A DNA stretch of 53,562 bases, the filler included, from Stramenopiles sp. TOSAG23-6 (taxonomy: Eukaryota): NCBI GenBank assembly GCA_900128565.1. It is 3 parts of 3 records of this genome, joined end to end, with 100 filler letters (N's around TTAATTAATTAA, not from the genome) between each part and the next. Parts side by side here need not be neighbours in the genome. Positions count along the whole stretch, not along the records: positions 17,931 to 35,702 come from LT636074.1; 2 more parts are not named here. The stretch is one strand, 5' to 3'. The notes beneath the pieces are model-generated. The model was given only the letters and a program-made list of their open reading frames with translations, searched no databases and was not told where the DNA came from. The translations under genes were made by a program, and so were the position numbers. Positions 12,401 through 53,562 of this stretch are shown piece by piece; within the stretch, counting starts at the first letter, position 1, and the number at the start of each line of letters is the position of its first letter.

Positions 12401-15400
12401 ACTTCTTTTTCAGCGACTTTAAGTGCATTTATTGCATTTTTCATTATTCTTTCTTTATCAAGATCTTCTTCGTCAACCATATTAGCTTTTTCCATTTTCT
12501 TTTGAGCTTTACTTAATAATATATCCACATTATTTTTACTTTCATTGAATGGGATGAGCTCTACATTAATTTGCTTGATTCTATCCTCATATAGTGAACA
12601 TTGTAAATAATCTGACTTTTGCATCAAAATTTCTATTACTCGCTTTCGTCTCTCCAATTCAGCACTTGCAGCATATACGCAGAGACTCATGGCGCGTAGA
12701 GCACAAGGAACGACACGTTTCTCATTAAGGTTTGTTTCTTTTGCGAAAAATCTCGACTTCAGTATTTCTATATTATCTGATACATTGTTTTCAAAGGCAG
12801 TAGCTAAATTTGGTGCATCCCCAGGAAGCATCCATTCCTTAACATTCCCTTCGGGGATATTATTTAGCAATGTTTTGTACATTTCTTTGTCTTCTTGTTC
12901 AGCTCGCCTTGCAATATTTGTTAAATCCTTTAAAACTTTAAATGCCTCTTCCGCATTTTTCTTTAATGTCTCAATTCCTTTACGTTCTTTTTTCAGCATA
13001 CTTGCTCGGATCCGTTTGGATTTTGCGAACTTGGTTAAACGTCGAATTATAATATGAGATGATTGATCTTTTTCTGTCTTATCTTTCTTACTTTCGTGGA
13101 AGGCTTGATTCACTTTCTTGGTAGCTTCTACAGCTGCAATTTTCCCACNCTTTTCCATCTCTAAGGCCACAGACGCTTTGGATTCCAGCTGTAAATATGT
13201 CTCACGCGCATCTCGCAAATTTTGTTTTGACAAAATCATGTGTTTGTAAGATTTTTTCCATTTATCATGCGATTTTAATAGAATATCCCATTTTGTTTTA
13301 TGGTTTTTGTGTAACAAGAATCGTTTTCTTTTAGCCTCGATATCGAGTTTGTCATTTTGTACTGAGGCTTCTACATCACTACGAGCGTACATTTCTGATA
13401 TGTACCTCATTGCAAGCATAAAACCCGGTGATTGAGTTAATCCACTTCCTGTAAACTCGCTCAATGAAATTAACTGTACACTCCTAATTTCTTTATTGAA
13501 CGTATCGGTTTTTCCCACACCGTTTTCTTCGAGATCATTTGTTATATGGTTTAAATGCATCGCCGGTTCCACATTATATTGAGAAAGCTCTACTAAACAT
13601 TTAGAACTCTCGCGTACCACATGGTCAAATTGTTTCTGTAACTCTATTTTTTCCTCCATTGTAATTTTCGCCTTTGCTTTAGATTTTCCAAGTGAGCGAC
13701 GCGCAATCATCTTTTTATGTTTTGCAATTTTTGCTTCGCTTTCTGCTTTCCCCAATTCGATTATATGCGCANCCTTCAATGCTTTAGTAGGAATGTAGTC
13801 GATTGCTACTAACGCTGCAAATATTTTATCCTTTTCACTACTTAGACGCGATACTTTCTTTAGGTCTAATTCTTGATTTTCAATCAATATTTGTAATTCT
13901 GAGAGTAATCCTTTAGCTGTCTCTGCTCGTTGTTCTGCTTCAAATCCCAATCTTGCGACGTTTTGAGCATCTTGAAAATGTAATAATCTTTGTTCTGCTT
14001 CTGATTTTGATTTTTCCATTCTTGAAATTTCGTTGTTCGTAAGTTTTAGTAATTCAGTATAATTCTCTAATTTCTTTAATCGTTTTTGTTCCGTCTCTTC
14101 AGAAATAAGTTCGTTTAAGATAAGACGTTTTTTCACCAATTTGTCTCTAATTTGTCTCATATTATTTTGTGAATGAATTAATTGTTCTGTTGCCTCTTTA
14201 TTTGCCGCCTCAGCTTTGGCCAGTGCTTTTCTGTGAGTACTTAAGAGAGACATCTTTATATTAACCCTTTTGAATACTTTAGAAAAACGTTGGAAATTCA
14301 ATTTTGATTTGGACCTTTCTCTATTTCCACTTTTTACTGGAGTTTTAGCTTCATCTGTGACAATTTCAGATGTGTCTATTTGANCAACCGAGTTTTCGTT
14401 TTCGAGTTCTTCTTCATCGGCGTCTACATTTTTCTCTTTCGCAACATCAACATTTGCAGCTGCATCCATTACATTATTCGATGTCTCTAAAACCTTTTCT
14501 TTGGCAAACTTATATACAATTTCTGCATCTTCAAAAGCTCGCTGCAATTTTTTTACAATTGGGCGAAGTTTCGACAACCTCAAAGTTCGTTTTGAAATAT
14601 CAAAAGGCAAGAAGTCATCCTTAATACGGTTGTAAGCCGTAACTAGCTTTTCATATAATTGTGTTTTTTTCAAGTTTCCAAGATTATCATCATTGTTTCC
14701 ATTGACTTCAATTGTTTTGTTATTCCTTTCTACATCATTGTCACTGTTATCCGAATCAGAACTTGAATCATCCTCAGAGCCATCAGCAGCACTGTTAATC
14801 GCACCCATTGTACCATGTATATCATTGTATGCTTTTTCGGCCGCAGACTTTGCAACTTCAACTTTTGATTTGAGTATATCTAAATCATAATCAATTTGTT
14901 GAAGATTGCGAAGTTCTTTTAATTTTAGCTTGACATCGTTTTGATCTTGAAGTAATTTAATTACATCTAGCTTATGATTCCGAATCTCTAGTTCACGAGA
15001 TGCAATTTCCGCAGNCGTGAGCATTTCTTTAGAAATTTGGTCCACAAGGTGTCCTTCTTTCATTTGAGTNGTTTCTTCAATATCTTCTTGTTCAAACTGT
15101 AAATCATCTAACTTTTTTTCCAATGCATTAATTTTTTCTGATTCCAAGATTCTTATACGTCGCCGAGGAATATTGTAAAACTCGCGATCGTTGTTGAGCC
15201 GCACTGTAAATTTAGTTTGGACAATATTTGGGTTTAATGAATCAACGCCTACGATAAATCCANGACGCCAATCGCGGCGATATATTTCATTGTCGCTCTC
15301 TGGACGTTTATATGTTTCGGCATAAGGATCATCNTCAGTGATTACTAATGTTTTAGACAATAATTTCAGTTCTGCAATACTACTACCATCTTTTGTTTTT

Positions 15401-17805
15401 TTGATTTTACTTTTTTTTTTCTTATCATGATCAGATGTAACTCCATCAATGTTAGTATCCACAGGTACTTCCTTTAACTTTTTTTTACGGGCTTTTATCT
15501 TTGTCAAGGAGATTTCACCAAAGTCCTCGTCAGAAGAAGTTGCCATATCTTCTGCTTTTTTGATTTCTGCTTCTAATGCAGCAACCTTTGCTCTTTCTTC
15601 TTCCTTCTTCTTCAAATAAATGTTCCTTGCCTCCTCNGTGGGCATATTATCTAAAAGCATTTTCTCATTATTCTTTTTATTATCTGCTAGGCTCTTTGTC
15701 TTTTTCTCCGCCCTTTTCATTTTCTCAGCTTCTCTAGCCTCACGGAGTCTCTTCTTATCAAAGAAACGCATCCTAGCAGACTCCTCGAGCTTTAAAAGCA
15801 TATCAACTTCTGATGCACGTTTCCGCAGCAGGCGGCGCTTTTGACGGGCAGCGCGTCGCTGAATTTTACCTTCTCTAAGAATTTGTAGATAGGTAGTAAC
15901 AGCATTATTGTCATCTCCTTCTCTCAACTCTTGGAGCTTCTTTAGTTCGTCTTCCTTGCGCCTCTTACGAAAAGCAGATCGGCAAGCAATCCGAAATTTC
16001 TTATTCCTCGCCAATTTTCTAGCATTGTATCCTGCTCTTTCATTTTCTTCCATCCTTGCAATTCTATCTGACTCAAGCTGTTTCTCTTTAGCCTGTCGCA
16101 CAGAGCGTTTATTTAACTTTCGAGTATTGTCAACAACTCGGTCAGGTTTTACAATATCTTCGTCAGATTCGACATTTGAATCAGTATCAGAATCTTTATG
16201 TTCTTTTTCACTATTGGCTTCAACAAAAGAGTTTCCATTGACAATCTTTTCATCATGTTTTTTAGCTAGCTTCTTTTGTTTGTCTGATTCTTTCTTTAAT
16301 TTACTTTTATTAGTCCCGATATATTGTCCATCTTCATCTGGATCTTCATCAGAATCACCAAAACTTACTTCTACAAATGTTGCATCGTATGTAGCTCCTC
16401 GCCGTGGAAAAAGCATTCGTATATTTTTACCCATTCGCTCTCGGCGACGTTCATCGCGGAACCATTGTAATTCCTTTTCTCTATCGGTTTTATGCAAGGC
16501 TTTCAAATCAGCCCTTTTAGCCTTTGTTGCCGCATCTACCATTGCTTTGCGTTCAGCTTTGGATTTTTCCATTTCTCTAATACGATCAATGTTACGGACA
16601 TCTAATGACAATTGATCAGCTTCTATCATGAGCATTCGTCTTTCACTTAATGCAATGCGCATTTCCCGCGTTTCATATGATGCAGCAGTAAATCGGGCAT
16701 TACTTAATGTTCTTCGTGCTAAAGTTACGATTTCGAGTTCGGGTGATTCTCCTTCGACATTATCACTATTATTTATATTCAAATCTTTATCATTCACCTG
16801 ACTTAATACAAAGGCAAGTTGTTTCTCAGCCTTTTCTACAGCAACTCTAAGCGCATTCAGTTCAGCTACTTCTTTTTCAGACTCCATATCTACTTTTTCT
16901 CGTGCACGTGAGTGGGAAAATTCCACAGACATTAATATTTGTTCATACTGTCGCATCACCGCCTCTACAGCTCTATTGGAGGCACGATGGGCAATTGATA
17001 CAGACGACTTTGTTTCACGAATAATCTCTTTAATTCTTTGCTTCAGAGCTTTTGCATCTTCAGCTTCTTTGGCTTCCGCCTCAGCTACTCGACGAGCTTT
17101 TTCATCCGCTTCTTGTTTCTCCCGAGACTTCTTTTCTGCGATTTCGCGCGCATACTTATCTTTACTTTCCCATTCTTCAAGTTCTCTTTTTGCACTTTCC
17201 AAAAGCTTTTCAGCTTCAGCTTTATCGGGACCCTCTTTTGCCAGATTGAAGGCCTCTTTGGCTAATTTTACTCGTTTACGAGCCTGTCTCAAAGCTCTAG
17301 ATGCCAGTTTTGCATCAGTCTTGGCCATCTTTTCTTCCTCTTGTCTATGCAACGCCGCTTCAGCTATTTCACGTTGCATTTGCCGCTTTTTCATGCGTAG
17401 TTTTGCCGCATGTGCTCTCGCTAAAGTCTCTGCTTTTTTTTGGGCTTTCTTCTTTTTACGTTCTATTTCAGCCTGTTTTTCAGCAACCATTCGAAGCTTT
17501 TCCTCTTCTTCTCGTTCTTTTGCATCTATTTCATCTTGAATCCTTTTTTCTTCCCTTTGTTTTTCTCTCTCAGACTCTTGTATGCTAAGCAAGTTTTCTA
17601 ATTTTTGTAATTCCTTTGCAATCAATATCCGACGTCGGCGTTTTTTACTTCCTCCACCCATAGCTCCATCAAGTTTTCGACGTAATTCGAGTAGCTTTGC
17701 AGATAACTCAATAGGGGTCCAAGTTTTGTGCTTAATAATATTGTGTACACCAAGGTTTTTAATATTTTTTGTAGTTGAAATCCGGGATTTACTAATTGGT
17801 AACAC
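6412..17805 (-). CDS. Giant intronless coiled-coil protein with an EF-hand pair, IQ motif, ankyrin-like repeat and C-terminal PPR repeats (5' end truncated by gap)
   Basis: 11.4-kb ORF containing FDQLDEDKSGELDKNE and MDSSGDGSVTFEEF (EF-hands), LQRFVRGFIHRRR (IQ), ATELLLLRGASLD (ankyrin-like) and PKLTTYNSVLDACSRASQWKRAMSVF (PPR). Confidence 0.85.
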   Translation of the reverse strand: MLPISKSRISTTKNIKNLGVHNIIKHKTWTPIELSAKLLELRRKLDGAMGGGSKKRRRRILIAKELQKLENLLSIQESEREKQREEKRIQDEIDAKEREEEEKLRMVAEKQAEIERKKKKAQKKAETLARAHAAKLRMKKRQMQREIAEAALHRQEEEKMAKTDAKLASRALRQARKRVKLAKEAFNLAKEGPDKAEAEKLLESAKRELEEWESKDKYAREIAEKKSREKQEADEKARRVAEAEAKEAEDAKALKQRIKEIIRETKSSVSIAHRASNRAVEAVMRQYEQILMSVEFSHSRAREKVDMESEKEVAELNALRVAVEKAEKQLAFVLSQVNDKDLNINNSDNVEGESPELEIVTLARRTLSNARFTAASYETREMRIALSERRMLMIEADQLSLDVRNIDRIREMEKSKAERKAMVDAATKAKRADLKALHKTDREKELQWFRDERRRERMGKNIRMLFPRRGATYDATFVEVSFGDSDEDPDEDGQYIGTNKSKLKKESDKQKKLAKKHDEKIVNGNSFVEANSEKEHKDSDTDSNVESDEDIVKPDRVVDNTRKLNKRSVRQAKEKQLESDRIARMEENERAGYNARKLARNKKFRIACRSAFRKRRKEDELKKLQELREGDDNNAVTTYLQILREGKIQRRAARQKRRLLRKRASEVDMLLKLEESARMRFFDKKRLREAREAEKMKRAEKKTKSLADNKKNNEKMLLDNMPXEEARNIYLKKKEEERAKVAALEAEIKKAEDMATSSDEDFGEISLTKIKARKKKLKEVPVDTNIDGVTSDHDKKKKSKIKKTKDGSSIAELKLLSKTLVITXDDPYAETYKRPESDNEIYRRDWRXGFIVGVDSLNPNIVQTKFTVRLNNDREFYNIPRRRIRILESEKINALEKKLDDLQFEQEDIEEXTQMKEGHLVDQISKEMLTXAEIASRELEIRNHKLDVIKLLQDQNDVKLKLKELRNLQQIDYDLDILKSKVEVAKSAAEKAYNDIHGTMGAINSAADGSEDDSSSDSDNSDNDVERNNKTIEVNGNNDDNLGNLKKTQLYEKLVTAYNRIKDDFLPFDISKRTLRLSKLRPIVKKLQRAFEDAEIVYKFAKEKVLETSNNVMDAAANVDVAKEKNVDADEEELENENSVXQIDTSEIVTDEAKTPVKSGNRERSKSKLNFQRFSKVFKRVNIKMSLLSTHRKALAKAEAANKEATEQLIHSQNNMRQIRDKLVKKRLILNELISEETEQKRLKKLENYTELLKLTNNEISRMEKSKSEAEQRLLHFQDAQNVARLGFEAEQRAETAKGLLSELQILIENQELDLKKVSRLSSEKDKIFAALVAIDYIPTKALKXAHIIELGKAESEAKIAKHKKMIARRSLGKSKAKAKITMEEKIELQKQFDHVVRESSKCLVELSQYNVEPAMHLNHITNDLEENGVGKTDTFNKEIRSVQLISLSEFTGSGLTQSPGFMLAMRYISEMYARSDVEASVQNDKLDIEAKRKRFLLHKNHKTKWDILLKSHDKWKKSYKHMILSKQNLRDARETYLQLESKASVALEMEKXGKIAAVEATKKVNQAFHESKKDKTEKDQSSHIIIRRLTKFAKSKRIRASMLKKERKGIETLKKNAEEAFKVLKDLTNIARRAEQEDKEMYKTLLNNIPEGNVKEWMLPGDAPNLATAFENNVSDNIEILKSRFFAKETNLNEKRVVPCALRAMSLCVYAASAELERRKRVIEILMQKSDYLQCSLYEDRIKQINVELIPFNESKNNVDILLSKAQKKMEKANMVDEEDLDKERIMKNAINALKVAEKEVLGIDVLIKPLEIERLNLNQKLEAASIARVNRKKQVTTSSVEWAENFHKEIILEQRNKEKDSRGIISALVGKKWTKEDTMKRAAALALTASSPSAETDYWRVYNFNPFIETKDVIEYDQPISIPSESNPSSDSEGVLLIKASRLATKRRFEGVLAEVEYKKKISALRDEDIRSLNSMLKDAMLKHKNSQIKRDKADKLFQSQWKEEADASGEFKPLPDYDEFVVEERTDVSEVLVSLYNDLTDATRKMEDCFDDMDDIRTDLKVLQEEKWKEDLDTLKKQKELCEKNVSNSEHLIDKLRSFDNIWNNAQIKRLRENMDKSKAAMEACNKDKCTLQNYLDARIAALRPFGPMRSGDITPIEQAKIESELCARHSELECLVPAFIDAQEKYKKYFFKLRREAEIQSKDDDAIALVEKERKRVAQIVRRRRRAIRRRNRGPLPIWEEALASSEDDPSLSSDSDEEERHWVALMRIDLCEKEKQHKECLNMKRERVSMEREENRQRTVMKEIAFSEADTIRCEELKKEELRKRDENDKTLTEKELKKTLKERARDEKRKSQKAIQAEKKEKKRILNEQKNIREKEKRLDPLGIGFFNENGQAYSAIERKKLMMGKIRKLFDQLDEDKSGELDKNEVRKLAEALGEKLTGFLSNKKLNDAFSEMDSSGDGSVTFEEFTDWYLKNVAKGIREIGSENTEGYKRESMQEQLLREEKEAAERVIATNIAREEALQNELLIESYVIETAKTSLERHKMLLALATSAFEHKMVESSKAIFYDSSVFFKPNFAKQISEVTIQWKSNISIQSSNRIVFTLPCLSSAYDIIPCSISGSHGKDFSSAWYRNTHTLILVAKRGLFIPCNTEISVVIKRSNRLFPTGIAPANHGTMLWETEGRGKPWVRDKSGNAIPYKIRRKQLRKFLKAKQKDQNGNLENEDFSEATDTDNNNDESSSEEEGLVQNESKSEEEESSNSSSESENSNTDENLSAVASNNVRRLNKKQRKAKMKRRIKKRKLREENKPSKELKIMRGLVESEKLFVHCSTYHGDKDRIESTQIMRVNSVVDGDPLSDASDSDSEAGVTHGISVTRLETIKRTMRQMKDLDADKRMFMRQRWETMERQRHKALKSDRIEALIRADRMQILRERKQVARRCTSMVLFHWDLVKKVKGTMRPMRNLQRFVRGFIHRRRARYLRSVRKAQAAWHYYKARQRFQSMQGAVVALQCALSRGLVLNPRELCRAELVCKVWRAKIMSSEVQKSQWRPWFCRLAMSTGTDPAFLAPNITDNWKNCYSSVMIIRRLLCSTDGFAQKNKXWSQLDPKQHALRRAAANTTIGGTKASWNLWKPALVRKIIKMTHHAPRPEYLFSAPVMAAMGSVCWLDRLFRRAWQFPVAAFVATLLSRGLDPDTIVDGSRLLLKCIKWGCADATELLLLRGASLDASPPGHDEPYVLPREYVAQMAKWVKLQHMNIRKGLCKPSPGFGARADGILRIYAMMFGRLFSDTQKKHGSQKKIENIEDVEDINIDVPKKHTNLSPKQRSMKLRHAAMKCKQRWMRDGKHSSHELLVAVKNQIRQAETETSRVIQEREKIMEERIAKVIAASEAKTELADLSIKRHQITESTQLNYDRIKTNSNMIVSQRRVQLCQAKEKLVELEAEYLRFINQALSITEHLSLAESSGWRQRVTKCVEHVGELLQDKSNASHIAFAMRALGLQLPFASGKEXHTELQELRKRCIVYETKRNPAFRAQHSRVTRLKNDLASLEKLKNSQLAELRAKFVDERGDIDDAIQLASKRKKSNGVLQNRRVTNIEKEETERYTIAPDFIANLEVVRKITPTAHVTISDMVKARSLYLRILRDLCKTGKWRESMYVFNVMVQRDIRPDLSTFTAIISTCKYAKPPAADAAVGILWEMKRFQIQPKLTTYNSVLDACSRASQWKRAMSVFKALVNDDLSPNTATYDCLINMAMHAKIEDAPDLYNAMKLSGVPVAISYSAAMKLIQRGAHIELKM

Positions 17806-17830
17806 TTCAACCTTTTGGACAGATTCATTT

Positions 17831-17930
17831 NNNNNNNNNNNNNNNNNNNNNNNNNNNNNNNNNNNNNNNNNNNNTTAATTAATTAANNNNNNNNNNNNNN
17901 NNNNNNNNNNNNNNNNNNNNNNNNNNNNNN
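17831..17930. other. Assembly gap with TTAATTAATTAA linker (17875-17886)
   Basis: N-run interrupted by a 12-mer that has stops in all six frames, a typical contig-joining spacer. Confidence 0.9.
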
Positions 17931-17983
17931 TACGAAATTTCGTATGAAAAAAAAATTAAATTAGAAATTCATATAAAACATAC

Positions 17984-20122: not shown

Positions 20123-23100
20123 ATGAGCACAACTCGTTGTCGTATTGGTTTTGAATGTTTTTCAATAGAAGCACTAAAGCGTACGTTTTCATCTAATTTA
20201 TTTTTTTACTAAGAAAATTTTGTACCTAACGATTTCTTTTACTAAAAAGAAGTATTTTTCACAATACATATTTACGCAAAGATAAAGAATTCTTTTTTCT
20301 TACACCTGCAGCACAAAAAAAAGTCGTTTTGGAAGAATGGAATAAACTCAGTGAGATCGATAGGGACATGATCTGTTCAAAAGCCGAAATTTCTCAAACA
20401 AAAGAATCAAATATTGTCACAGATGACAATGAGTCAACGAAACAGTCACTTAAAAAATTGTCTATGAAGGGAAAGAAAATTAAATGTAAAAATACTTTAT
20501 CTAAAGGCAAAACAACCACAAACACAAAAAGTAAATATAAGAAAAGAAAAGGTAGCAGTAATAAAAAAGTGGTGAAAACTGCAAATACCTCTTTAGTGGA
20601 TCCTCAAATTATTCAAGAAGAAACAAAAGATAAAAACAAACAAAGTAATGTTTGTAAAATTACACATGATTCATCTAAATCTATAAATTCTTCAGTCAAT
20701 GTTATTGATTTAATTGATGTTGACGAAGATTGTATAATGATTGATGAAAGTAAAGGAAAAGTGGATATAGTTGTTATCGATGTCAAAACACCAAAAACAT
20801 TAAAAAAATCAAATAATGTTGCAAATAATATTACAAATAATATTACAAATAGAGAAAATAGTGGAAATGGTTCAATTTCTATCGACAAAAATATCTCTCA
20901 AAATGATAAAGATTTGATTGAAGAAAACAAAATTAAATCTATTCCTATGATGTTTCGTACCAAATCACAAAAAAATCAACTTAATATACTACAAAGTCGT
21001 CGTTTAGAGCGGGAAAAATATGAAAAATTAAGAAAATTTGATCAAGCACTGAATCAAAATAAAACTTTAAATCCGTTTTTTGATAGAGAAAAGCGACGTT
21101 TAGCAGCAAAAAAATGTCAGAGATCAAATTCTTTTGGCAGTGAAAAATGTACGTTTTTATCATGGATTTAAATTTTTTTTTTTTTTGGTAGAAAATTCTG
21201 TACCTAATGAATTGTTTTTGTGACATATTTTTCCACAATAAATATATCCCTCCTCAATTTATTCACAAACATTGGAATTTAGTTGAATTTCCGTCCCAAA
21301 TGTTGGGATTAAAAAATCATGTGTATGGTGATAATAAAACTATCTGTGATAAGGATGATGAAACTGTCGTGATTTTCCCCATCAATTATATATGTTTTCA
21401 TGATGAATTTCAAATTTATCTTTTTTCATACGAAATTTTGTACCTAACAAAAAACAATTTGAAATATTTTTTCACAATACATTCTTCTGTCGCGAAGAGT
21501 ATGTGTGATTGGATTGATAAGAAACCAGAGAAGAATAATATAGATGAAGTAATTGATATAAACACTCAAGAAAATCTGGATAGCAGTAGTGGCATTTTTT
21601 TTTCAACTGCTCTTTTGAATGGGGAAACAAAAAAATATTTAGGAAAAAAAGTAAATGTTGTAGATATAACTCTTGATGAAAATAATTGTGAAAATAGTAA
21701 AGTTTTACATGATAATTGTCACACCGTAATGTCTCGAGCATTACCTGCTGCCGTTTCGACATTTATTAAATCGAATAAAGTTCAGAATGCAATCCTTGAT
21801 ATTACTAGAGGTAGAGAATTTAATTCAAAATGTAGTACTAATAAAGAGGATAAAGAACAAGATGATGATGATGATGATGATGATATGAAGGAACTGGATG
21901 CAGAATATGCAACAACGTTGTCAATGTTTACAATGGCTGCAATGCGACGTTTTTCAATGGGTGACGCAAATGTGTGGCATTCAGATTGGAGTCATAAATA
22001 TCGTCCTAGGTGTACGTTTTCATCATGAATGTTTTTACCTAAATTGTTTTTTACTAGAAAATTTCATACCTAACGATTTTTTTGTATGGAAAAAAATGTA
22101 TATATTTTTTTATAATACATGTACGTTTCATATGAATTTCTAATTTAATTTTTTTTCGTACGAAATTTCGTACCTAACGATTTTTTTTTAAATATTTTTT
22201 TATAATACATGTGTCGGAGACATTATAGGAAAACATAATCGAAATGAGGCTGAATCTTTACTTACATGGTTGTACGTTTTCATCATTTCAATTTCGAATG
22301 TATTTGTTTTGTACCAAATTTTGTACCTAACATTTGTTGTACACCAAAAACCAAATATATCTTTTTACACTAATTGAGGGAATGGAAACAACTTCATTTG
22401 GGTCAACGTGGTAGACAAAATGTATCAAATAAAAGTAGTTATGGCTCTTATGGTATAAATTTATGGTACGGATTTGATGATGGTGATAGTAGTGACGAAT
22501 CAGAATTAAGTAATGGTTGTTTACTCACTGGTCCTACTGGTTGTGGCAAGACTTCATTAGTATATGCATGTGCAGAGATGCTTGGAATTAGAGTTATTGA
22601 AGTTCATGCTGGTTGTAAAAGATCTCGCGCGGATATATGTATGTTTTCCAGTATGAATTTCAAATTTATTTTTGTGTAGTAAAAAATTCTGTACCAAACT
22701 TTTTTTTTACTCAAAAAAAAAAAAAAAAAAATTCACAATATAGTAAGACTCTTTGGCGAAGCAACGCAATCGCAACGTTTGACTTTAGATTCAAAAAATA
22801 AGAATAAAAAAAGTAAACAAAAAACTACATGGCATGTACGTTTTTAAAATTGAATTTTGTCTAATTTTGTTTCATGCGAAATTTTGTACCTAACAAAAAG
22901 AATTGTATAATTTTGTTTTCCACAATACATGTTGCTCGAGATGACGATACACCGAAAAAGATTGCAAAAAGATTGGACGTAAGTGTCAAAGACATTCTAC
23001 TACTAAATAATGGGAAGTCTGGAACAGAAAAATTGTACATGTCTGCTCGTTTATACAAGGGAACGAATGTAAAAGTTCCTGTTGAAAAGCAAAAAAAGAA

Positions 23101-24834
23101 AAAGAAGAAATCAAAAGCTTCAAAAGCGAGAGAAAAAGCTCTACAAAGTACGGAAACATCGACTGAAGCAAATTTTAGTATTATTTTATTTGATGAAGTT
23201 GATCTCGATTTTGAAGAAGATTTGGGTTTTATCGCTGCTCTTCGAAATCTTCTTCGATCTGCAAAGTGTCCAGTTGTTATGACTGCAATTACTAGACCGA
23301 ACTCTTTGACTGAAAATTCTACTATTGATTTACGAACTTTACATTTAATACGACCTGATAAATTGGTACAACTTCGCTGGCTTCGTGTAATTTGCCTTGC
23401 TGAGGGATTAAATGTAAAAAGTTCAATGTTACAAAAACTTCTTGAAAATTCAAGTTTTGATGTGAGACGTTGTTTAAATGAATTACAAATTTGGTTTAAT
23501 AAATTGCCACCGGTACAAGAAAGTCGTTCCTCAAGGCATTGTAAAGATGATACTTTATCGATACAATTAAAGATCCCACTTCTTGAGATTTCGTATGGTC
23601 AATCTGGATTAGATGATATTCCATCGTATAGTGGTAGAAGTGCTGTTGAGGGAATGGGGGATTTACGATCTCTATGGTGTTCCGTGTTACCACAATTATG
23701 TACTCATTGTAGAATTGCATCTACTGTGGTGAATATAGAGGGTGGTTTTTATGATACACAAAATTATACATCTACTGATATGAAGTGTTCATTGATGAAT
23801 CTTAAAAGTAAAAAGAATAGTAATAAGAAGAAAAAAATTGCCTCGAATGGACGTCGTAGACTTCGAAAAGCATGTGTGTCAAGTTCTGATGATGATTTTG
23901 AAGATCCACCAATAGCACAAGATGATAATGAAGAAAAGATTAAACATTCTGATGATGATTTTGAAGATCCACCAATAGCACAAGATGAGACTATAAATGT
24001 CATTAAAAGTGAAAAAGATAAAATAAGACCACTTCGTCGTACAACACCTCTGACTGATACGGAACACTTATCTAATGTAGAATTTTCTATTATTTCAAGT
24101 GTATCATCATTGACGTCAGATGTCGATGCAATAGTATCCTTAAATTCTCTGCAACGTCGGGGGTGGAGCAGTTGTTCTTTAGCAGATTCGCGAGACAGTG
24201 AGAGTAGTGAAGATCTGGAAATGTGGCATCATTCAAATCTTGCATCAGAAATTTCCGCAGAACTTTTTGCATTGCAAGGTAAAGTGTACAATAATAAAAT
24301 TTCTAATATTGTAAGCAAAGTCCCAAATGAAGTAAAAACTTCAGAACCAATTTGCCCTACAGCTGCTCAGAATTATTGCGAATATGCTATACAAGTAGAA
24401 AACACTCGAGATAAATTTCGTATACAATGGGAGGTTATATTAGACCTATCATTCAGAAATGATTATGAAAGATGTTTTGTAGAATCTTTGTCTAAGCGTA
24501 CGTTTTTATCATGAATTTCAAATTTAGTTTTTTTTTCGTACGCAATTTTGTACCTAACATTTTTTTTTGATATTTTTTTTACAATACATGTTCTGTAGGT
24601 AATAATAATATGTCAGGCGCCGGAGTACTACGACTATCACATAAAGGTATCGATGAACTTTCTGGTCTACGGTCAATTTGTGAGTCCTGGCAGTTGAATA
24701 GTAAATACATGGCATCTCGTCGTCGAAGTAAAAGAGCACGTCTTCACTATTTAGTTGATGGTGCCCGAACTTTTCTTACGGATGAAGACGTTGCGACAAT
24801 TACAAGATCTGGAATATCTAGTGATGCACGGTAG
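20123..24834 (+). CDS. ATAD5: ATAD5/Elg1-like (RFC1 family) AAA+ clamp loader/unloader large subunit with LysM-like insert (exons 20123-20180, 20270-21148, 21244-21389, 21483-22011, 22211-22271, 22376-22638, 22744-22835, 22931-24497, 24590-24834)
   Basis: WSHKYRP, LLTWLREWK, Walker A GPTGCGKTSLVYACA, RS..DIL..FGEATQSQR, Walker B ILFDEVD, AKCPVVMT and DVRRCLNELQIW. The start codon is uncertain. Confidence 0.82.
22012..22210 (+). other. Two back-to-back family introns (22012-22120, 22121-22210) with a zero-length exon
   Basis: ...TATAATACAT|GTACGTTTC..., each unit with its own branch motif. Removing both gives KYRPRCVGDIIG. Confidence 0.85.
22272..22375 (+). other. Non-canonical GT-TT intron
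   Basis: tgg tt|GTACGT...ACTAATT|g agg restores WLREWK. Confidence 0.72.
22639..22743 (+). other. Canonical GT-AG member of the intron family
   Basis: ata t|GTATGT...CACAATATAG|ta gives DILRLFGEATQS. The AG falls in the same register as the AT of other members. Confidence 0.85.
23885..23988 (+). repeat. In-frame 41-bp direct repeat, 63-bp spacing (SDDDFEDPPIAQD x2)
   Basis: tctgatgatgattttgaagatccaccaatagcacaagatga occurs twice. Confidence 0.85.
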
Positions 24835-25048
24835 TAAAATTAAGGTGAATTAATTGGTCACTTGAGTGTTTGTTATCATGATATATCAAAGATAATAAAT
24901 GGGTATTCATATGATGTATATACATTTGAAAAGTTGTTTTTTATTACTAGAAACTGCATATGAAAAAAGTGGATACTAGAGAGAGAGAGAGATAAAATGT
25001 TTTTTTTTTTATTTTCTTACAAAAAGGGGTTCAAAAACATCTCAAATG

Positions 25049-27666
25049 TTATTTTCTTCCATCGCTAATAGGCCATATACTAGAGTTCCTTTTACGATAA
25101 AATAATTGGTATGCTCTTGGAGATATAATATCACTTACATCACGAACTTTTGTGCATGAAGAGTCATTAAAATTATACCATTGGTTATTTTTAAAGTTCT
25201 TAGCATATGCTGTGTAGTGTCCCCCTCCAAGACCACCTGAATGATTAGATACTGCAAATAAATCATATATATAATCATCATCATTCGTTGCTGACATTAC
25301 AAATGGAGAAAGATCAAGACCTTCCAAGGGGAAATCGACCATTGATGATATTTTATCACGAGTAACACTATGTTTTCTCCATCCTTGACTATAGTGAAAA
25401 CGTTTTAAACCTACAATGAAAATCTCAGGTACAGACCATAAACCTAATTGTTTATATGCGCGAACGTGTTTTTTACACTTATTACAATACCATTCATTCT
25501 GTTCATCAAGCTGTTCTTCTGCAGCAAAAGCTGAGAAGCACGATGCTATATTGAGTGCGCTTGATTTATTACAGCCACGTCGAGGCATAGATGAATGCAT
25601 AACAACATGTGAAAATGTACTGTAAAAAAATATTTAAAATTTTGTTTTGTTAGGTACAAAATGTTGTACGATTTGTTTTCTACAATTCATGATGAAAACG
25701 TACATGCTGCTTGATCAAAAGAGTTATCAAAGCCTTCGACGGTCCATTGCACCACAATCATTTTGTCTTTGAAAGATGTGGTAACGACATCATCATTTTC
25801 AAAAACTTCTTTCAATTTTGAATTTCGAGAGGAATATGATGAGTATCCTTTTTGTTTAGATGAACCTATAGCAAGTTTAAATGGAAGCCTTTGGGAATTA
25901 TAACCGGATCCAACTTTTACGTATTGTTGCATATATTTCCACACTAGAGTATGCATTTCCCTTCCAGTACAAGTATTGTGAAAAAATATTTCAAAAAAAA
26001 ATCGTTAGGTACGAATTTTCGTATGAAAAAAACAATTAAATTAGAAATTCATATAAAACGTACAACGCCTGGGGAAAACAAGGACAAGAGTATGCCCAAA
26101 TGATTCTCCACGAGAACCAGGTGATCCTAGACTAAATATCTTTTTATCTTTTGGAGCTTTCGGTTTTTGTTGATGAACTTCTATTGCAACTCTACCGATA
26201 CCAAGGGCAGTTTTATGTGAACCTAATTCAACCATACCAATTTTTTTACTCTCATTTACCCACTCATCTGCAGTCAATCGGCCAGGTTCAACATTCGAGT
26301 TAAAGTCACCATCTGCAAATTGAACCTCAAAAGTTCCATCATCATTGACACTATCAATCCAGCCATTAAATTCATTACCTGTCATACATATATTGTGAAA
26401 ATATATTTCTTTTGTATAATTTGTTAGGTACGAAATTTTTATAAAAAAAAATAAATAAATTCGAAATTGAAAAAATATAAAACATACTATTCCATCGACA
26501 TCTAACTTTTAAACCTTTCACGAAATTACCATTGGCTCTAGCTTTGGCTTCATCACTGGATCCTCCTTCATACGGATCAGGCTGATTCATTTCGAGTTCA
26601 TATATAAATGTTGTAGCTCTAGGACGAATTCGTTTACATTTTTCTGAATTATTTCGTGTTGTATTAATCCTCACAACTCCAAGATTATCTGTCATATCAG
26701 CACAAACAAGAGAATCAACACCACCGGAAATACCACTCATCACAACTACAGCATGTTTCAAATCAATTATAGTACTATTTTTAATTTCTACACGAGGTTG
26801 GCATCTAAGTGGAGGTCTAGCTGGATCTTTAAAAACTACAGTCACTTCAATGGGTCTTGTAGTAGGCAATGGTAACGGTAGAGATACTGTCATATATGGA
26901 TCAAAAGTAATGCTTTCACGACTACATTTGTTACACTTAATGTGACTTCGAAGTTGTCCAAAAAATGTATCTGTGATAAATGATTTATTACGTCGAAGGT
27001 GCCCATCCCATGCTAATTTCGCAATAACTTCATCTGGTCGTCCATCTGATTCAATGACTGGCTCGTATGGTTTTTTCTTAATTAAATTACAATCTTCATG
27101 TAAGCCATCCAACAAAAACGTCATTAATTCTTGAGCATCTTGTTGATTGTATCCCGCAAAACTTGAATTATATTCACCAATTCGTTTTTTAAATTCTGCA
27201 GGCACACAAACTGAATAATCACCTGACCAAACGGCATTAATAAGATTTGCGTACGTTTCAGTCATCCGACCACCATAACCAATTTTATTATCTTTATTTA
27301 TTGAGTCTTCATATTTTCCAGATAAAAAAAATGTGGATAGAGGCTCACAATTTGAAAGACATTGAAGAATAGAGTTCATAAAACAAGTATTACCTAAATT
27401 CCTTAAACCAACAGCTCCTTCAATTGCTGGAGATCCAATTGTATGAGCTCGAACATTACGTGTATTTCTACTATTATAACGACGACCAAATTGTGATTGT
27501 TGCTTTACGTGTGTTCCATATCTTTGTAATTCATCACTGTCAAATGTAAACCAAGTATCAGTACTTTCATCACTTTTATCCCAATGTAGTTTTACACGTT
27601 TTCCTCCATGTATTGAGAAAAAATATGTTTTATATTCTATACATATTTGTTAGATTTAGAATTTTC

Positions 27667-27697
<31 letters not shown>

Positions 27698-29157
27698 ACA
27701 TGAAAACGAAAACATACATTGGTCGAAGGATCTCTGTCCACTTCGACAACACGAGCGTTCATCCAGTTCGAAGATGTTCCAGAAGAATTAAGCTTTTTCC
27801 CCTCTACGCGATCATTTACACGAAAGTTTCTCCAATTTCCAACTTTTGAATATTTTGGTTGTAATCGACTGCGTTCGGTTTTCCAATTAATCCACTCATC
27901 CCATCTCGATGCCCAACCTCTATAATGAACTTTAACACGAAATTCTCGATGATTTGTTTCAATAATATCAGCTTCCCACCATTTATTCTGAGAATCTATA
28001 CCATCACAGCGACCCCATGCATTGTGAAAAAAAAAATCAAATGTTTTTTGTTAGGTACAAAATTTCGTATGAAAAAAAAAATTCGAAATTGAAAACGTAC
28101 CGACAGCAAGTTGTGAACGCCAGTTATCAGATAATTCTTCGACATCACGAGGCCATTTACCATTGGCGTTTAATTCTTCCACTAAAATCTCACACGAGTC
28201 TTCAACTCCAGCAAGATCCTGAAGATTACCATCAATACCAACAAGCTGCCATGGATTATGAAAAATATTTCAAAAATTAAAATTGTTAGGTACAAAATTT
28301 CGTATGAAAAAAAAAATTGAAATTGAAATGAAAACGTACATGCTTCTACTTCATTACCTCTGGAGGTTGGTCTCGACCAAAGTCGAATTCGTGACTTGGC
28401 TACTTTATATTGATTGGCGACGATTTCTAGAAGTTTGGTTAAGGTTTGATTTCGTGAAAGCAAAACTCGTTGATACATGTATTGTGAAAAAATATACATA
28501 TTTTTTTTTCTGTACAAAAAAATGATTAGGTCCAAAATTTCGTATAAAAAAATAAATTTGAAATTGGTAAAACATTGAAATGAAAACGTACATGCCAGAG
28601 TGAATATTTTCACGATCTGTTGCAGACACTATTTCTGCTTTACCAGCTAAATCAGCTTTAATTAAGTCAAAAACTAAAGGGTGAACTTCAACAGATAATT
28701 TCTTTTCAGTACCACGCACAATGACTTCACGACGTAAAACTATTGAGCAACCATATAATTTAACGAGTACAATCCAAGCTTTTTCAGGAACAGCAGTGTA
28801 ATCTTGATCATAAAAACAATCTTTACGAACCTCTTGACCAGATCCTGTTACAATAGTACTGTTATCAATTGGACCAGGTCGTTCACCACCTATGGACAAC
28901 TCCTTTCTCAAACTCAATTTCTCCTCAAAAACACGCTGAAGGTCAGTTTTGTTTTCAGACATTGGACTTCCAGGTGTCAGCTCCATTGATTCATTTGCAA
29001 GCGACTCGCAAGGTACAGATGCTTGGTAATCGTTCCATGCTTGGAACCACTTAACCGGTAGGATATACCAAATAGAACCAAGTGTCAACTTTGAATTTTT
29101 GATTACTTTTGCAACTTCCGACTCTGTAAGAAATGAATCATCCATATTTGGAGGCAT
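25049..29157 (-). CDS. Ubiquitin-specific protease, USP4/11/15-like, with DUSP, UBL and Tudor/Agenet-like inserts (exons 29157-28592, 28476-28340, 28250-28101, 28016-27718, 27607-26488, 26387-26064, 25970-25704, 25614-25049)
   Basis: DUSP (WY...KWF..W, PGPIDN), Cys box GLRNLGNTCFMNSILQC, QQDAQE..FLLDGLHED and His box NHSGGLGGGHYTAY. Confidence 0.9.
25971..26063 (-). other. Non-canonical GT-TT intron
   Basis: cgt t|GTACGT...CACAATACTT|gt act. The exon also ends in TT. Confidence 0.78.
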
Positions 29158-29483: not shown

Positions 29484-32400
29484 ATGTCTATGCAACTTTC
29501 ATCAAATGAAACAAAGAAAACGATGAATGAAAGTGAAGGACAAGCGCCCTTAGACTCAACTAGACGAAGTCAATCACGATTCGGGAGACCAGGGGGACAT
29601 AAACCGTCGCAATCATTGTCTTCAGCTGGTGATGCTGATAACGAAACAAAAGAAGAGAAAAAATCTTCGATAGAAAATGATGAAACGAAAGGTAAAGCGC
29701 CAGATTTGAGTGAAATAAATGAAATGCTTGGCTCATCTCGTGAAGGCACATCATTAATCGCGAAATCTGTCAGATCTGCGATATATTTTCCTCCCCCACT
29801 AGAGTCTAAGATTATCGTGAATTCTTCTCAACCAGGACAAATTGACTATCATAACCGTAGTATAGCTGTTATTAAGAAACGTTGGGCGGATGGAATTGCG
29901 TTTCCTAAAAGACCAATTATAAGTAGTAGAAATACAGCAAAAATGGAGGATCGGCAATATCGAGAAGGAGGAGACATCGAGGTGTATAGCATTCCATCGG
30001 TAAAACACCGTACACATTTATCTAAACCTTTCAAGGATAAAACTCCCGCAAACTTACAAATAAGACGCTCAGTACCTGATATGTCTATTGTCGAAGGTGA
30101 TAAAACGGCTACATTGCTATTACGTTTCACAAAAATTGTTTTTCGAGATCATGTATGTTTTATTTTTTTTCAAATTCGATTGTTTTTTTCGTACGAAATT
30201 TGTACCTAACGAATTTTTTTTGAAATATTTTTCCAAAATACATTCTCTTTTTTCAAAAGAAGATGAGTTATCAGTTTCTCTTGGCTTACAATTTGAAAAA
30301 TATCAAAACCTTTTAAAGGCACAAACTCTTCCGCATTTAACTAGTCGCATGGAAAGTCTCATAAATTTAGGTATACAACACGATGGAGAAATGCCTAGTA
30401 ATGTACCAGTTTTATCAAAATCAAAAATAGCTTTACAACAGGAGCAATCTCGGGATATGCGTATTTTATTTGTTGTTTCAAAATGGTGTAGTGTAGTCGA
30501 GGAGTATCGAAAGTCTGCTGCTCAATGTTACAATTTATGGCAGAAATTAAAACAAATTCGAAAAGAGAACGGATATTCTAATAGTCGAATAAAACTTACA
30601 GCAAAAAAAGTTCTATTATTTGATGAAGAAAAGATGAAGAAACAGTTAAGTTATATTGATCGCATCATTCATCGCGATTATTTAAATGATTCAAAAAACG
30701 AACAAATCAAAACACAAACAAAACAAAAGCGCTACTGGATCAATATGCTTGAAAGAGCACGAAAATTAGTAGCACTTGATGGAAATGACTATTTATTTAC
30801 TTTAAAAAATAGTAATTTAGTATCACCTGTCTCTCTACCAGCGGTTACACTGAAGGAAGAATTAAGGAGAAAAAGTATAGAAAATTTACGAATTTATACT
30901 ATATTAAGAATTAATGGTCACCAAGTATGTAAAACAGATCCAATGCCTTTCGATTGGCCAAGCTTTGCAATGAATATATCACCTCACCAAACATTGCATA
31001 TTGAATTATATCAATTACCAGAAAAAGTTGAATTGCAAATATTTCAGAAAAATAAAGTTGATTCCATGACGGGAAATCTTCTAGGTACTATGAATATTGA
31101 ATTACCTGGATCAAGTACACACTGTCCAACGATGCTCTCTGTTGCCCCAATAAGTAATAAAGGATTTTTTAAATCGGCTAATCCAATGATTTCAAAATTT
31201 ATAGCAAATGACATCCAAAAGCCAGAAAAAGATAAAAAGTCAAAATCAAATGATTTGAAAAAGCGATATTTTTATGGAAATGTCGATTATGAAATTGCAT
31301 GGGATACATCTGATGCGCTAGTTGAGCCTGGGGCTAAACCTTGTATTTTGCCAGCACAGCCTTTACCAAGTGGGAAAAGTGGAGGTCTTAGTATTAATGG
31401 AAAAATTCTAGTTGGTCCTAAACAGGCCTTGCGAGCTCTTTCAAAGAAAGAATCCATGAAAGAACAAATTGATGTTAATATAGACAAAGATTTCAAAGAT
31501 GAATCACGGCGATCCTCAAATACTGAAACAAATGCGGCAGAACTGGCAACATCATGGTGTTTAGAACTTGGTGAAAGTGAACAATCTGCGTTTCAAACTT
31601 TAGTAAATCCAAATGATCCTCGGAATCAAGAGTTTATGAGATTGAAAGCAAATAACATACTCCAAGAAAAACGTATATTTCGCGTGACTACATTGGAATC
31701 AGAGTTAAATTTGTCTACGTATATTGCATCTGGTGCATCTCGACGACATCAGCTACTAAGATTACGTGAAAAGGAGCCAATTCATTTCATGCAACCTGTA
31801 CCAAGTACGGAGAAAGAAGTTGCTTCATCCAACACAATGCTGTCAATCCTTAAAGGTGCAGAGGAAAGGGAGGCAGAAATTAGAGCAATGTCAGGTCGAA
31901 AAGCAGCAACAAAAAAACAAAGAATTGGTAATTTTTTAAGACGTGTGAAAGAAGTTTATCGAGAACAAATACAGAAATCAGCAATACATAAAACTACGCT
32001 AGATGAGATTGTTCGAGAAGAACTTCTTCCAGACTTTGCAGCTAGTCTTGATTTTGGGAACATAGTCAAATTCTTTGAACCAAGAAGACGACTGAAACCA
32101 CAACCAAGAGCACGGCAACCTTCGAGTACACTTGTACCCGAGTGTAAAATACATGTTCAAATTGTTAGAGCACAAAATGTACCCATTCGAGCTTCATATT
32201 CTAAACTCAAATATTCTGGATCGACTGGAGATGGATCAGATGGTGATCGCGTGATGTCATTTGTAGATGTTCGTTTCCAAAACCATCAGCATAGAACATC
32301 AGCCCACGAAGGCCCTGCTCCAATTTGGAATGAAACCAGACAAGTTCCAATAACGCTTCCATTTCAGGATATTTCTGCAAAGCGCCTTATTCAAATTCGA

Positions 32401-34023
32401 GATGAAGTTCATTTTCTTTTATTTGATGAATTGAGACCAGATGAATCAACTAAAAGGGGACGTTTAGGCCGAAGTGATCAAACTCAAAGATATGAACGAC
32501 GTTTTCTGGGCTCTTTTTCATTGCCCTTTTCCACAATTTATTTAAATGGAAGAATTCGAGGAAATTTTAGACTTAATGCTCCGATATCAATGCTAGGCTA
32601 TGATCGTTATACTGGTCCAAATGCCATTACAGGTCTTCCAACGCCTGGCGGAGCTCCCACGTACTTGACTATCTTAGCAACTCTTGATCCTCCTGTAGCT
32701 GTTCCGCCAAATATATGGAAAGCTCCAATTCCATACATTCCAAATGACTTAGACTTATTAAAGCTTCATCAACATGCGATGTCTTGGAAGAAAAAGATAA
32801 CAAAACAATATCCAGTTATGAGCGATAGAGAGTTAGAGGTTCTTGTACCTGATTTGACAGGTCATGAACAATTAATTACAAGATATATTCGACCACAGGA
32901 ACCTCCACCTGCACTTGCAGGTAATGTAACCATGAGTAGAGTAGCAGAAATAGTTCGATTTGTGTCTGTTATTCCATTTCTTAATGATTGGCATGTTGAT
33001 GGAGATAAAAATGATATTTGGTGCACAAGTGAACAATTTTTAAATTTGCAAGCAGGGGATTGGGAAGAGCACGCAATACTTTTATGCAACTACTTTTTAT
33101 ATCTAGATAAAAAGGCGGGAAGGTCTGATGCTGATGCTAGAACTTATCTATTGCTCGGACATGGTGTACCTATGGGTGATTGTTGTATGGTTTTGCGTTA
33201 CACTTCTCATGATGAAATTCATGATGCTGATGCAAACTGGCGAGTCGACAATGACAAAGCAAATGCAAAGAAATCAGCAGTAAAAAAAAATAAAGAAACA
33301 GGAGGTCAAAATATAGATGAAGATAAATTACAAACTGCAACAGACATGATAAAACACGACGCAAAACTCCCTGTAATTTGGGATGCATGTTCTGGCAATT
33401 GTTATTCTCCATTGGACTTAAATTGCCCACTTGTCACAGTAGGATGCGTGGTTAACGCTAATAATGTTTGGGCAAATATTCAAACAAATGAAGAGCCGAA
33501 GCGGATGAATTGGAATCTAGATGACACAAAATGTTGGTCCGCTTGCTTTCAATCAGATGCTGCATCGAAAGTTAAATCATTGCAAAAAGAAAGATTAGAG
33601 TATACAAAAACACCTAGTACCTACACTGCGGAACTGGAAGCACAAATAGACCAAGAAATCCTACGAGCTATTCGTGGTTGGCGAAGAAATAGATTTACTA
33701 CAGATTTCAATCGCTCCGTTTCGCTAAAGCTTAAGGAACTTTTAAGACCTCTAGAAAATGTCAAATTAGGTCTGAATGAGTATGATATCGAACATCATGT
33801 GAATCAGTTAAAGCGATTGAATCATACATTTGACATATTTGGCTTTCCGATTAATGTAACATTTATAGAAATGAAGAAATTATTAGCTGCAGTGAAAAAT
33901 ACAGATATTCATGAAAATGAAATCAAAGGTGTTCAATTTGCTATTGCGTCTTTGGTGCAAAGTTATACAAATCATGTTTGTTCAGTATGGTTGTATATTG
34001 CCGCTTTAATTCCTGTGAGGTAA
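29484..34023 (+). CDS. CC2D2A: CC2D2A/MKS6 ciliary transition-zone protein (exons 29484-30152, 30244-34023)
   Basis: NPNDPRN, FEPRRRLKP, C2 domain (IVRAQNVPIR...GPAPIWNE...LFDE), GDWEEHAILLCNYF and NVWANIQ. One GT-AT intron at 30153-30243. Confidence 0.92.
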
Positions 34024-34106
34024 AAGGTTATTTTTGAATAAATTGTTTTCGTAGTACATTTTATACGTAACAAAACAAATTATATTTGTGTATACAATTT
34101 TATTTT

Positions 34107-35702: not shown

Positions 35703-35802
35703 NNNNNNNNNNNNNNNNNNNNNNNNNNNNNNNNNNNNNNNNNNNNTTAATTAATTAANNNNNNNNNNNNNNNNNNNNNNNNNNNNNNNNNNNNNNNNNN
35801 NN
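35703..35802. other. Assembly gap with TTAATTAATTAA linker (35747-35758)
   Basis: Same spacer as at 17875. Confidence 0.9.
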
Positions 35803-35901
35803 TGGAAAAATATTTCAAAAAAAATCTAAAAAAAATTGTTAGGTACAAAATTTCGTATGAAAAAAAATGTAGACAAAAAATTAAAAAAAAATAAAACATA
35901 T

Positions 35902-52310: not shown

Positions 52311-52347
<37 letters not shown>

Positions 52348-53449: not shown

Positions 53450-53470
53450 ATAAAGTGTGAACAAATATTT

Positions 53471-53501
<31 letters not shown>

Positions 53502-53505
53502 GGGA

Positions 53506-53559
<54 letters not shown>

Positions 53560-53562
53560 ATA

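Follow-up and report, generated by a model that had tools for sequence, protein, structure and literature searches.

The window and its genes

The stretch of DNA analysed here (the window; 53,562 nucleotides, filler included) comes from Stramenopiles sp. TOSAG23-6 (assembly GCA_900128565.1) and consists of three parts of three records joined end to end, with 100 filler N's between each part and the next. It is AT-rich (GC 0.21-0.41 per 2 kb), gene-dense and eukaryotic, and its genes are interrupted by dozens of copies of one repeated intron family of ~100 nucleotides (nt), most of which begin with GT and end with AT. The long open reading frames (ORFs) are open under the standard code, the read-through ORFs contain peptides encoded by introns, and runs of N reflect a draft assembly. 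Intron density is very uneven, ranging from none in an 11.4-kb ORF (6412-17874) to six in the PP2A B'' gene.

We take a marine stramenopile-like protist to be the probable host. The best match of the PP2A B'' exon was EukProt protein P0122, with 83% identity over the searched exon; oomycetes came next at 64-66%, ahead of green algae and plants. No animal was found among the 120 matches listed for this exon, and a fritillariid tunicate was rejected as host on that ground. For the USP exon the best match was 49% identical, without a close relative. The sequencing runs sharing DNA words with the window were three seawater metatranscriptomes, with small shares of 0.06-0.09, and none was an RNA or DNA run from an organism in culture.

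A repeated intron family

A profile made from 23 clear copies of the family was used in an nhmmer search, which detected 50 places at E<0.001 in 53.6 kb. Both ends could be identified by eye in 41 introns, distributed over ~15 genes, and the counts given below refer to these 41 introns unless another number is stated. Copies cut by the window edge or by runs of N (1-54, 17983, 35901 and 52032) were not counted, and neither were those whose ends could not be fixed (~585-668, 2140-2043, 36818-36738, 47709-47900, 50247-50152, 50454-50553, 50980-50800, 52312-52213, 40095-40025 and 34023-34101).

The consensus was aligned from 21 copies, namely 20 of the delimited introns and one metagenome copy (contig L041), and reads in order GTAYGTTTT, a variable A/T-rich part, TTTTTC(G/A)TACGAAATTTTGTACCTAAC, a T-rich stretch and GAAATATTTTTTCACAATACAT. 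Copies are ~85-125 nt long and are composed of a 5' GTAYGTTT, a branch motif (T/C)GTACCTAAC, a T-rich tract and a 3' heptamer AATACAT. Conservation peaks at the 5' site, at the branch motif and in the 3' heptamer. The nonamer GTACCTAAC occurs 54 times in the window with at most one mismatch, where 4.9 occurrences are expected, and the branch motif typically lies 32-47 nt from the intron end (median 37.5 nt, a rough value since some of the regular-expression assignments are wrong). Similarity among copies continues through the parts that carry no splicing signal, and subfamily-specific variants are common to copies in different genes, for example those at 22121, 26063 and 17983. All 41 curated copies are in sense orientation.

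Three introns (22012-22210, with copies starting at 22012 and 22121; 4543-4723; and 1738-1913, minus strand) hold two copies abutting or fused head to tail, and in the abutting pair 22012-22210 both copies have the unusual end variant TATAATACAT. The paired copies suggest local duplication or conversion, or insertion beside the CAT^GT junction of an existing copy (here and below a caret marks a boundary between exon and intron). In most copies (e.g. 22155-22178) a 16-nt palindrome, GTACGAAATTTCGTAC when perfect, overlaps the branch motif. A copy thus has GTAC three times, at its 5' site, in its middle and at its branch site, and nhmmer scores the reverse strand over the palindrome too.

The family was also found outside the window. 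In seawater RNA contigs, depth reached 1000-3200 in element-bearing bins, compared with at most 5 in most exon bins. A 20-mer scan yielded 18 loci in all, with one further true copy in the public metagenome contig L041; short CCCTAA/TTAGGG-like telomere-type repeats lie at positions 2250-2330 of this contig, in an apparently non-coding stretch. The 28 loci from a 16-mer scan of viral contigs were all chance matches in unrelated genes, the 12 loci from a 20-mer scan of prokaryote genome contigs included no true copy, and no Rfam family matched in the window.

The copies, with the exon end, the intron termini and the basis on which each was placed, are:

215-304, plus strand: family intron AT^GT..AT^ (profile hit, frame intact)
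344-432, plus: family intron AT^GT..AT^ (profile hit, frame)
4543-4723, plus: composite intron of two fused copies, AA^GT..AT^ (two hits, 4543-4600 and 4630-4722)
4812-4912, plus: AA^GT..AA^, AG 34 nt before the end bypassed (junction length fits P0122 and P0124, TER-x-FR)
4999-5097, plus: family intron AT^GT..AC^ (junction YH^PGLEF matches P0122 and P0124)
5197-5294, plus: AT^GT..AT^, internal AG 22 nt from the end bypassed (junction NRAQN^G fits P0122)
5678-5778, plus: family intron GT^GT..AT^ (register 0 gives the conserved V of DGVIR)
20181-20269, plus: family intron GC^GT..AT^, mismatch (frame)
21149-21243, plus: AT^GT..AT^, AAAT on both sides (curated ends, junction repeat)
21390-21482, plus: A-first family intron AT^AT..AT^ (best profile hit)
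22012-22120, plus: first of two abutting copies, GT^GT..AT^ (frame restored only by the pair 22012-22210)
22121-22210, plus: second of the abutting copies, AT^GT..AT^ (curated ends)
22272-22375, plus: family intron TT^GT..TT^ (profile hit, frame intact)
22639-22743, plus: canonical-ended family intron AT^GT..AG^ (frame)
22836-22930, plus: AT^GT..AT^, CAT on both sides (curated ends, junction repeat)
24498-24589, plus: well-conserved copy GC^GT..AT^, both bases mismatched (curated ends, identity to consensus)
30153-30243, plus: family intron AT^GT..AT^ (frame)
41147-41245, plus: GA^GT..AT^, AG 5 nt upstream bypassed (registers -1/-2 give an in-frame stop)
46073-46173, plus: diverged copy AA^GT..AG^ (profile hit)
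47454-47577, plus: family intron AT^GT..AT^ (frame)
48071-48306, plus: long copy with two branch motifs, TT^GT..AT^ (curated ends)
48992-49159, plus: long copy AC^GT..AT^ (registers -1/-2 give an in-frame stop)
49487-49599, plus: family intron AT^GT..AG^ (profile hit)
49685-49818, plus: family intron AT^GT..AT^ (frame)
53201-53322, minus: copy GG^AT..AT^ with uncertain 5' boundary (frame not restored)
52960-53060, minus: GC-donor family intron AT^GC..AT^ (curated ends)
52656-52801, minus: diverged copy AT^GT..TT^ (frame)
51615-51713, minus: diverged copy AT^GT..AG^, upstream exon lost in a run of N (curated ends)
51290-51437, minus: AT^GT..AT^, 7-nt junction repeat CATGTAC (curated ends)
51086-51199, minus: family intron AT^GT..AG^ (profile hit)
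28477-28591, minus: family intron AT^GT..AT^ (115-nt excision in RNA)
28251-28339, minus: family intron AT^GT..AT^ (curated ends)
28017-28100, minus: CG^GT..AT^, both bases mismatched (curated ends)
27608-27717, minus: diverged copy AT^GT..AT^ (curated ends)
26388-26487, minus: TA^GT..AT^, GTATG repeated in the next exon (curated ends, junction repeat)
25971-26063, minus: family intron TT^GT..TT^ (93-nt excision in RNA)
25615-25703, minus: AT^GT..AT^, canonical-looking TTTACAG 5 nt upstream bypassed (frame argument)
2244-2333, minus: family intron AT^GT..AT^ (profile hit)
1738-1913, minus: composite of two fused copies, A-first, CC^AT..AA^ (profile hit)
1524-1617, minus: family intron AT^GT..AT^ (profile hit)
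1255-1356, minus: A-first, C-last copy GC^AT..AC^ (profile hit)
1-54, plus: 3' portion of a copy truncated at the window edge, not counted (profile hit)
17929-17983, minus: 5' part of a copy cut by a run of N, CT^GT, not counted (profile hit)
35800-35901, minus: copy cut by a run of N, AT^AT, not counted (profile hit)

Intron boundaries

Ends were set in the family register, so that an intron starts at the G of GTAYGT and stops after ..AATACAT. This register keeps the flanking long ORFs in one frame across 39 of the 41 introns, where chance gives one third (p=9e-17). The two exceptions are the first of the abutting copies, for which only the pair restores the frame, and the copy at 53322, whose 5' end is uncertain. 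Homology agrees with the same ends in the PP2A B'' gene, since the junctions at 4812, 4999, 5197 and 5678 fit P0122 and the oomycete protein P0124 without gaps.

Excision was also seen in RNA. A 413-nt contig of a poly(A) metatranscriptome (X3 record 19) contains a joint from 25966 to 26060, with 93 nt skipped that correspond to the intron at 26063-25971; the joint has six equivalent placements through a TTGTAC repeat, none of which yields GT..AG. A second X3 contig joins 28473 to 28589 and skips 115 nt corresponding to the intron at 28591-28477, again with six equivalent placements. The alignment of X3 record 19 ends at 26385, 2 bases before the predicted intron 26388-26487, with 15 letters left over, which hints at a third spliced junction there.

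Termini and bypassed AGs

The GT..AG rule is valid in almost all eukaryotes. In this family, GT..AT was found in 26 of the 41 introns, GT..AG in five, GT..TT in three and AT..AT in two, with one intron each of GT..AA, GT..AC, GC..AT, AT..AA and AT..AC. The 5' dinucleotide is GT in 36, AT in four and GC in one. At the other end, AG closes only five introns, and conservation is concentrated at T in position -5 (40/41), A at -2 (38/41), A at -4 (36/41) and A at -6 (36/41). YAY closes 27 of the introns and 15 of the upstream exons. These introns are thus of U2-type appearance, with an acceptor ..A(T)^ instead of ..AG^.

An AG lies between the branch motif and the intron end in 11 of 40 introns. 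The copies at 25703-25615 and 41147-41245 have a YAG 5 nt before the end which, by the frame argument, is unused. Copies beginning with A (ATAYGT) were seen five times (21390, 1356, 1913, 35901 and, with its uncertain boundary, 53322); one of them ends in C, giving AT..AC, and one in A, and they are too few for a test of coupling between the first and last bases.

Exon ends and intron ends

Upstream exons end in AT at 24 of the 41 introns against a background of 9% (p=3e-15), and the third base from the exon end is C in 14 (background 16%). The next exon begins with G in 23 introns (background 21%) and with GT in 11. Because of this preference for (C)AT^G(T) sites, both junctions tend to read CAT^GT, and half of the introns therefore seem to be flanked by a duplicated AT or CAT.

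An earlier note on this DNA had proposed that the terminal dinucleotide of the intron co-varies with the upstream exon end, as the trace of a 2-bp target-site duplication, preferring AT, of an introner bounded by GTA...TAC which splicing removes together with one copy of the duplication. The cases it relied on are as described, namely TT^GT..TT^ at 22272-22375 and at 26063-25971 (minus strand) and AA^GT..AA^ at 4812-4912; its estimate of about 20 AT^GT..AT^ introns compares with 18 counted among the 41, and the mismatches it listed are present (GC/AT twice, CG/AT once and GG/AT once, the last ambiguous). The covariation itself stands in part. The last two bases of exon and intron are identical in 21 introns, where permutation gives 17.4 (p=0.036), and 20 introns are mismatched, the differences at zero, one and two bases being 21, 13 and 7. 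Removal of the element with one copy of the flank describes the matching cases and does not generalize, as AT also closes 12 of the 17 introns whose exon ends otherwise.

Other comparisons lean in the same direction. The last three bases are equal in 11 introns against 6.6 expected (p=0.021), junction repeats of at least 5 nt number nine against 4.75 (p=0.012), and introns ending in CAT follow exons ending in CAT in 9 of 20 cases, compared with 2 of 21 for the remaining introns (Fisher p=0.012). Matches other than AT number three against 0.41 expected (p=0.004): the intron at 4812 with AA, and those at 22272 and 26063 with TT. Two introns have a T at -2 in exon and intron alike (Fisher p=0.021). 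Taken together, these values only weakly suggest that the terminal dinucleotide comes from a 2-bp duplication at insertion, and a duplication of 2-3 nt is possible in some of the copies.

Origin, spread and removal of the family

The interpretation that we favour, with slightly more confidence than doubt, sees here an introner family of high copy number in a gene-dense, AT-rich marine protist, probably a stramenopile, with duplication or microhomology at insertion in part of the copies. Its description as introner-like in the earlier note is borne out by the single repeated family, and so is removal without a terminal AG, given the restored frames, the two RNA excisions and the few AG-ended copies. 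Each copy carries a full set of U2-type signals (GTAYGTTT, (T/C)GTACCTAAC, a T-rich tract and AATACAT), and the major spliceosome probably removes it, with cuts at the G of GTAYGT and immediately behind the heptamer (mostly ..CAT^), while skipping AGs between the branch site and the cut point. The 3' site would then be read as A plus any base, mostly T, in the context AATAYAN, and not as AG. Copies appear to have spread by insertion, preferentially at (C)AT^G(T) sites, and a 2-3-nt duplication or microhomology probably accompanied the insertion of at least part of them, with the terminal AT mostly the element's own. Three routes are alike compatible with this, namely DNA insertion with a short duplication, recombination by microhomology with joined ends (..ACAT+GTAC..), and reverse splicing into CAT^G.

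A bolder version, which we hold only tentatively, is that GT..AT splicing arose independently, and on the scale of the whole genome, in a stramenopile-like marine protist. An introner would have created and spread the rule by duplicating a target of 2-3 nt (CAT), so that splicing leaves no scar at any insertion. The major spliceosome would in that case read ..CAT^ for ..YAG^ and ignore nearby AGs, and the consensus of exon end and intron end would have shifted together from CAG to CAT.

A number of points weigh against the favoured reading. The covariation tests are post hoc, the hypothesis having been framed on the same cases, and lean on three introns. Besides the 12 of 17 non-AT exon ends that face an AT, both bases differ in 7 of the 41 introns, and match status is unrelated to conservation, mean identity to the consensus being 0.826 in matching copies and 0.828 in the others. 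Age was rejected as a cause of the mismatches on these same values. The frame test is blind to shifts of +/-3 nt in introns that lack a homology check, RNA supports two junctions only among the joints listed, and the RNA contigs are metatranscriptomic and could in principle represent intron-less DNA alleles. The 41 introns were curated by eye, with unclear-ended copies left out. The GTA...TAC ends claimed earlier are there, as terminal inverted repeats of just 3-4 nt, GTA(Y)..(R)TAC, with nothing longer, and the consensus fold (21 sequences) has -0.23 kcal/mol and no end-to-end helix; its five pairs join a 5' GUACG with the (Y)GUAC before the branch site, without compensatory change. Given such short inverted ends and this fold, a classical miniature inverted-repeat transposable element (MITE) is not supported, and a MITE-like hairpin was not found. 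No transposase domain, and no recombinase or reverse transcriptase partner, was found with Pfam in the 10 ORFs scanned of the 32 with at least 150 amino acids in the window.

Several of these points are what is expected if no duplication took place at all, so that the 3' AT is the element's own ..AATACAT end, the rare matches are chance, and AT and G(T) in the exons reflect site preference or selection for spliceosome context; the excised intron could then have spread by reverse splicing into sites resembling CAT^G. The conservation of the heptamer beyond its last two bases, the AT exon end before four of the five AG-ending copies, the uniform sense orientation and the absence of long inverted ends all fit this account, which we consider possible although rather unlikely, since the 2-mer, 3-mer, rare-match and junction-repeat values lean the same way and exon CAT is associated with intron CAT. 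At the opposite extreme, a strict 2-bp target duplication of a GTA...TAC element preferring AT, with mismatches as later substitutions, accounts for TT/TT at 22272 and 26063, for AA/AA at 4812 and for the excess of rare matches, and the 21/13/7 counts correspond arithmetically to a change rate of ~0.3 per pair, similar to the ~17% divergence of copies. It is nevertheless improbable, because the coding exon copy and the splice-site intron copy should change more slowly than the body of the element, an age trend is absent, and double mismatches occur in copies close to the consensus (24498 with GC/AT, 28100 with CG/AT); the excess identity also extends to position -3, which fits 3 nt rather than 2. 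From the mismatch counts and the lack of a conservation trend it follows that the terminal AT is mostly the conserved end of the element, and that a strict 2-bp duplication is not the rule for the family, contrary to what had been proposed.

Two further readings set mobility or the register aside. That the introns are not mobile, and that an extended lineage-specific splicing signal constrains the whole of these short introns as in some intron-poor protists, would explain why the splice signals are the most conserved blocks, but we regard it as very improbable in view of the identity in non-signal parts, the subfamilies spanning unrelated genes, the tandem and fused copies, the very high RNA-contig depth over the element and the uneven intron density. 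A register two bases to the left would instead make these AT..AC-type introns (ATGTAYG...ATAC), possibly of the minor spliceosome; it predicts the same mRNA for the 18 AT/AT introns, and one copy (1356-1255) is literally AT..AC. Registers -1 and -2, however, create in-frame stops at 41147 and 48992, and at 5678 register 0 gives the conserved V of DGVIR found in P0122 and P0124, where register -2 gives I; the introns are therefore GT..AT and not AT..AC. U12-type introns are marked by the donor /RTATCCTT, with the branch motif TCCTTAAC placed 10-15 nt before their end. Here, the 5' hexamer GTAYGT stands in the universal U2-type register, ATATCC or GTATCC donors are absent and the branch motif lies ~32-47 nt from the end, and we give the shifted register hardly any credence. 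Minor AT-AC introns were accordingly rejected on donor, branch position and register. Internal eliminated sequences of ciliates are bounded by TA, lack spliceosomal signals and occur with the ciliate genetic code; the copies have AT ends, carry splice signals and interrupt ORFs that are open under the standard code.

Comparison with known systems

The closest parallels are the introns of fritillariid tunicates. AT is the commonest 3' end in F. pellucida (44%) and F. borealis (34%), and YAY often precedes the 5' site and almost always forms the last three intron bases in Fritillaria (PMC13326754), where the exonic triplet has been read as the duplication that formed the 3' site of transposon-derived introns (PMC11282704). 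A duplication that supplies a non-AG 3' site is thus already published for F. borealis (PMC11282704). The family shares with Fritillaria the large-scale non-AG 3' ends with AT foremost, the retained T-rich tract and the asymmetry of YAY, here 15/41 before the 5' site and 27/41 at the intron end. It differs in its host, which is not a tunicate, the best named PP2A B'' matches being oomycetes, in its canonical GTAYGT compared with the mostly AG 5' ends described for F. borealis, and in the dominance of a single family of highly similar copies whose branch motif is explicit and yeast-like.

The introners of Micromonas pusilla and Aureococcus anophagefferens (Huff et al. 2016, as reviewed in PMC11282704; Gozashti et al., PMC12130899) have clear terminal inverted repeats and fixed duplications of at least 3 bp, and form GT/GC..AG introns. 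The present copies resemble them as many near-identical, short, sense-oriented elements that act as introns in unrelated genes, and in the excision of the element plus one flank copy where flanks match, and depart from them in the 3-4-nt inverted ends, the putative nature of the duplication and the 3' AT. In Amoebophrya A25 and A120, inverted repeats of 8-20 nt fold the introner ends together, consensus termini are lacking and U1 was not found (Farhat et al. 2021, PMC7789003). The two systems share a marine protist host, mostly non-canonical introns among those seen and variable short direct repeats over the borders (here 0-7 nt, apart from the abutting pair), and the copies in the window are distinguished by the lack of an end-to-end fold, a strong U1-type 5' site and fixed termini. 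The literature searched contained no account of the present family, nor of GT..AT introners from stramenopiles.

The robust and more interesting result is a dominant GT..AT introner family in a marine protist that is not a tunicate. The few lineages that break GT..AG genome-wide are the main natural experiments on the re-tuning of the spliceosome and on the role of mobile elements in it, and the present case is a simple one, with a normal 5' site and branch site, only the 3' site altered and AGs passed over. Gene finders that demand AG would mis-annotate most genes of this organism, so that the family would escape annotation-based introner surveys; such surveys drop non-canonical families without support (PMC12130899). 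If the short duplication holds genome-wide, this would be a second lineage, unrelated to the first, in which a non-AG acceptor can be defined by a duplication, and if GT..AT splicing arose independently here, it would be a further origin of large-scale non-canonical splicing outside tunicates, syndinian dinoflagellates and euglenozoans.

Other features of the window

The intron-free ORF at 6412-17874 (minus strand) runs without interruption for 3,820 codons, a few of them read as X owing to N bases, and its neighbouring genes have one family intron every 100-500 bp. Two splicing-related genes look ordinary. Their products are an LRR_9 protein of the U2 small nuclear ribonucleoprotein A' type, which also has a SAP domain and a long basic tail (38616-39854, plus strand), and an RRM_5/RRM_1 protein of the PTB/hnRNP-L kind (41248-41988, plus strand).

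Two genes that carry the start of a RanBP2-type zinc finger (W-x-C-x2-C) are split by a family copy, at 48071 and at 53322, exactly at the second cysteine. The boundary at 53322 is ambiguous because the zinc-finger codons overlap the intron start of the profile, and the junction of 48071-48306 restores what we take to be the RanBP2-type spacing (C-x3-N). Both lie in the last 6.5 kb (47000-53562), which is much richer in AT (GC 0.21-0.30) and contains runs of N, and where the copies are longer (up to 236 nt), swollen with poly-T and poly-A, more diverged and more often AG-ended.

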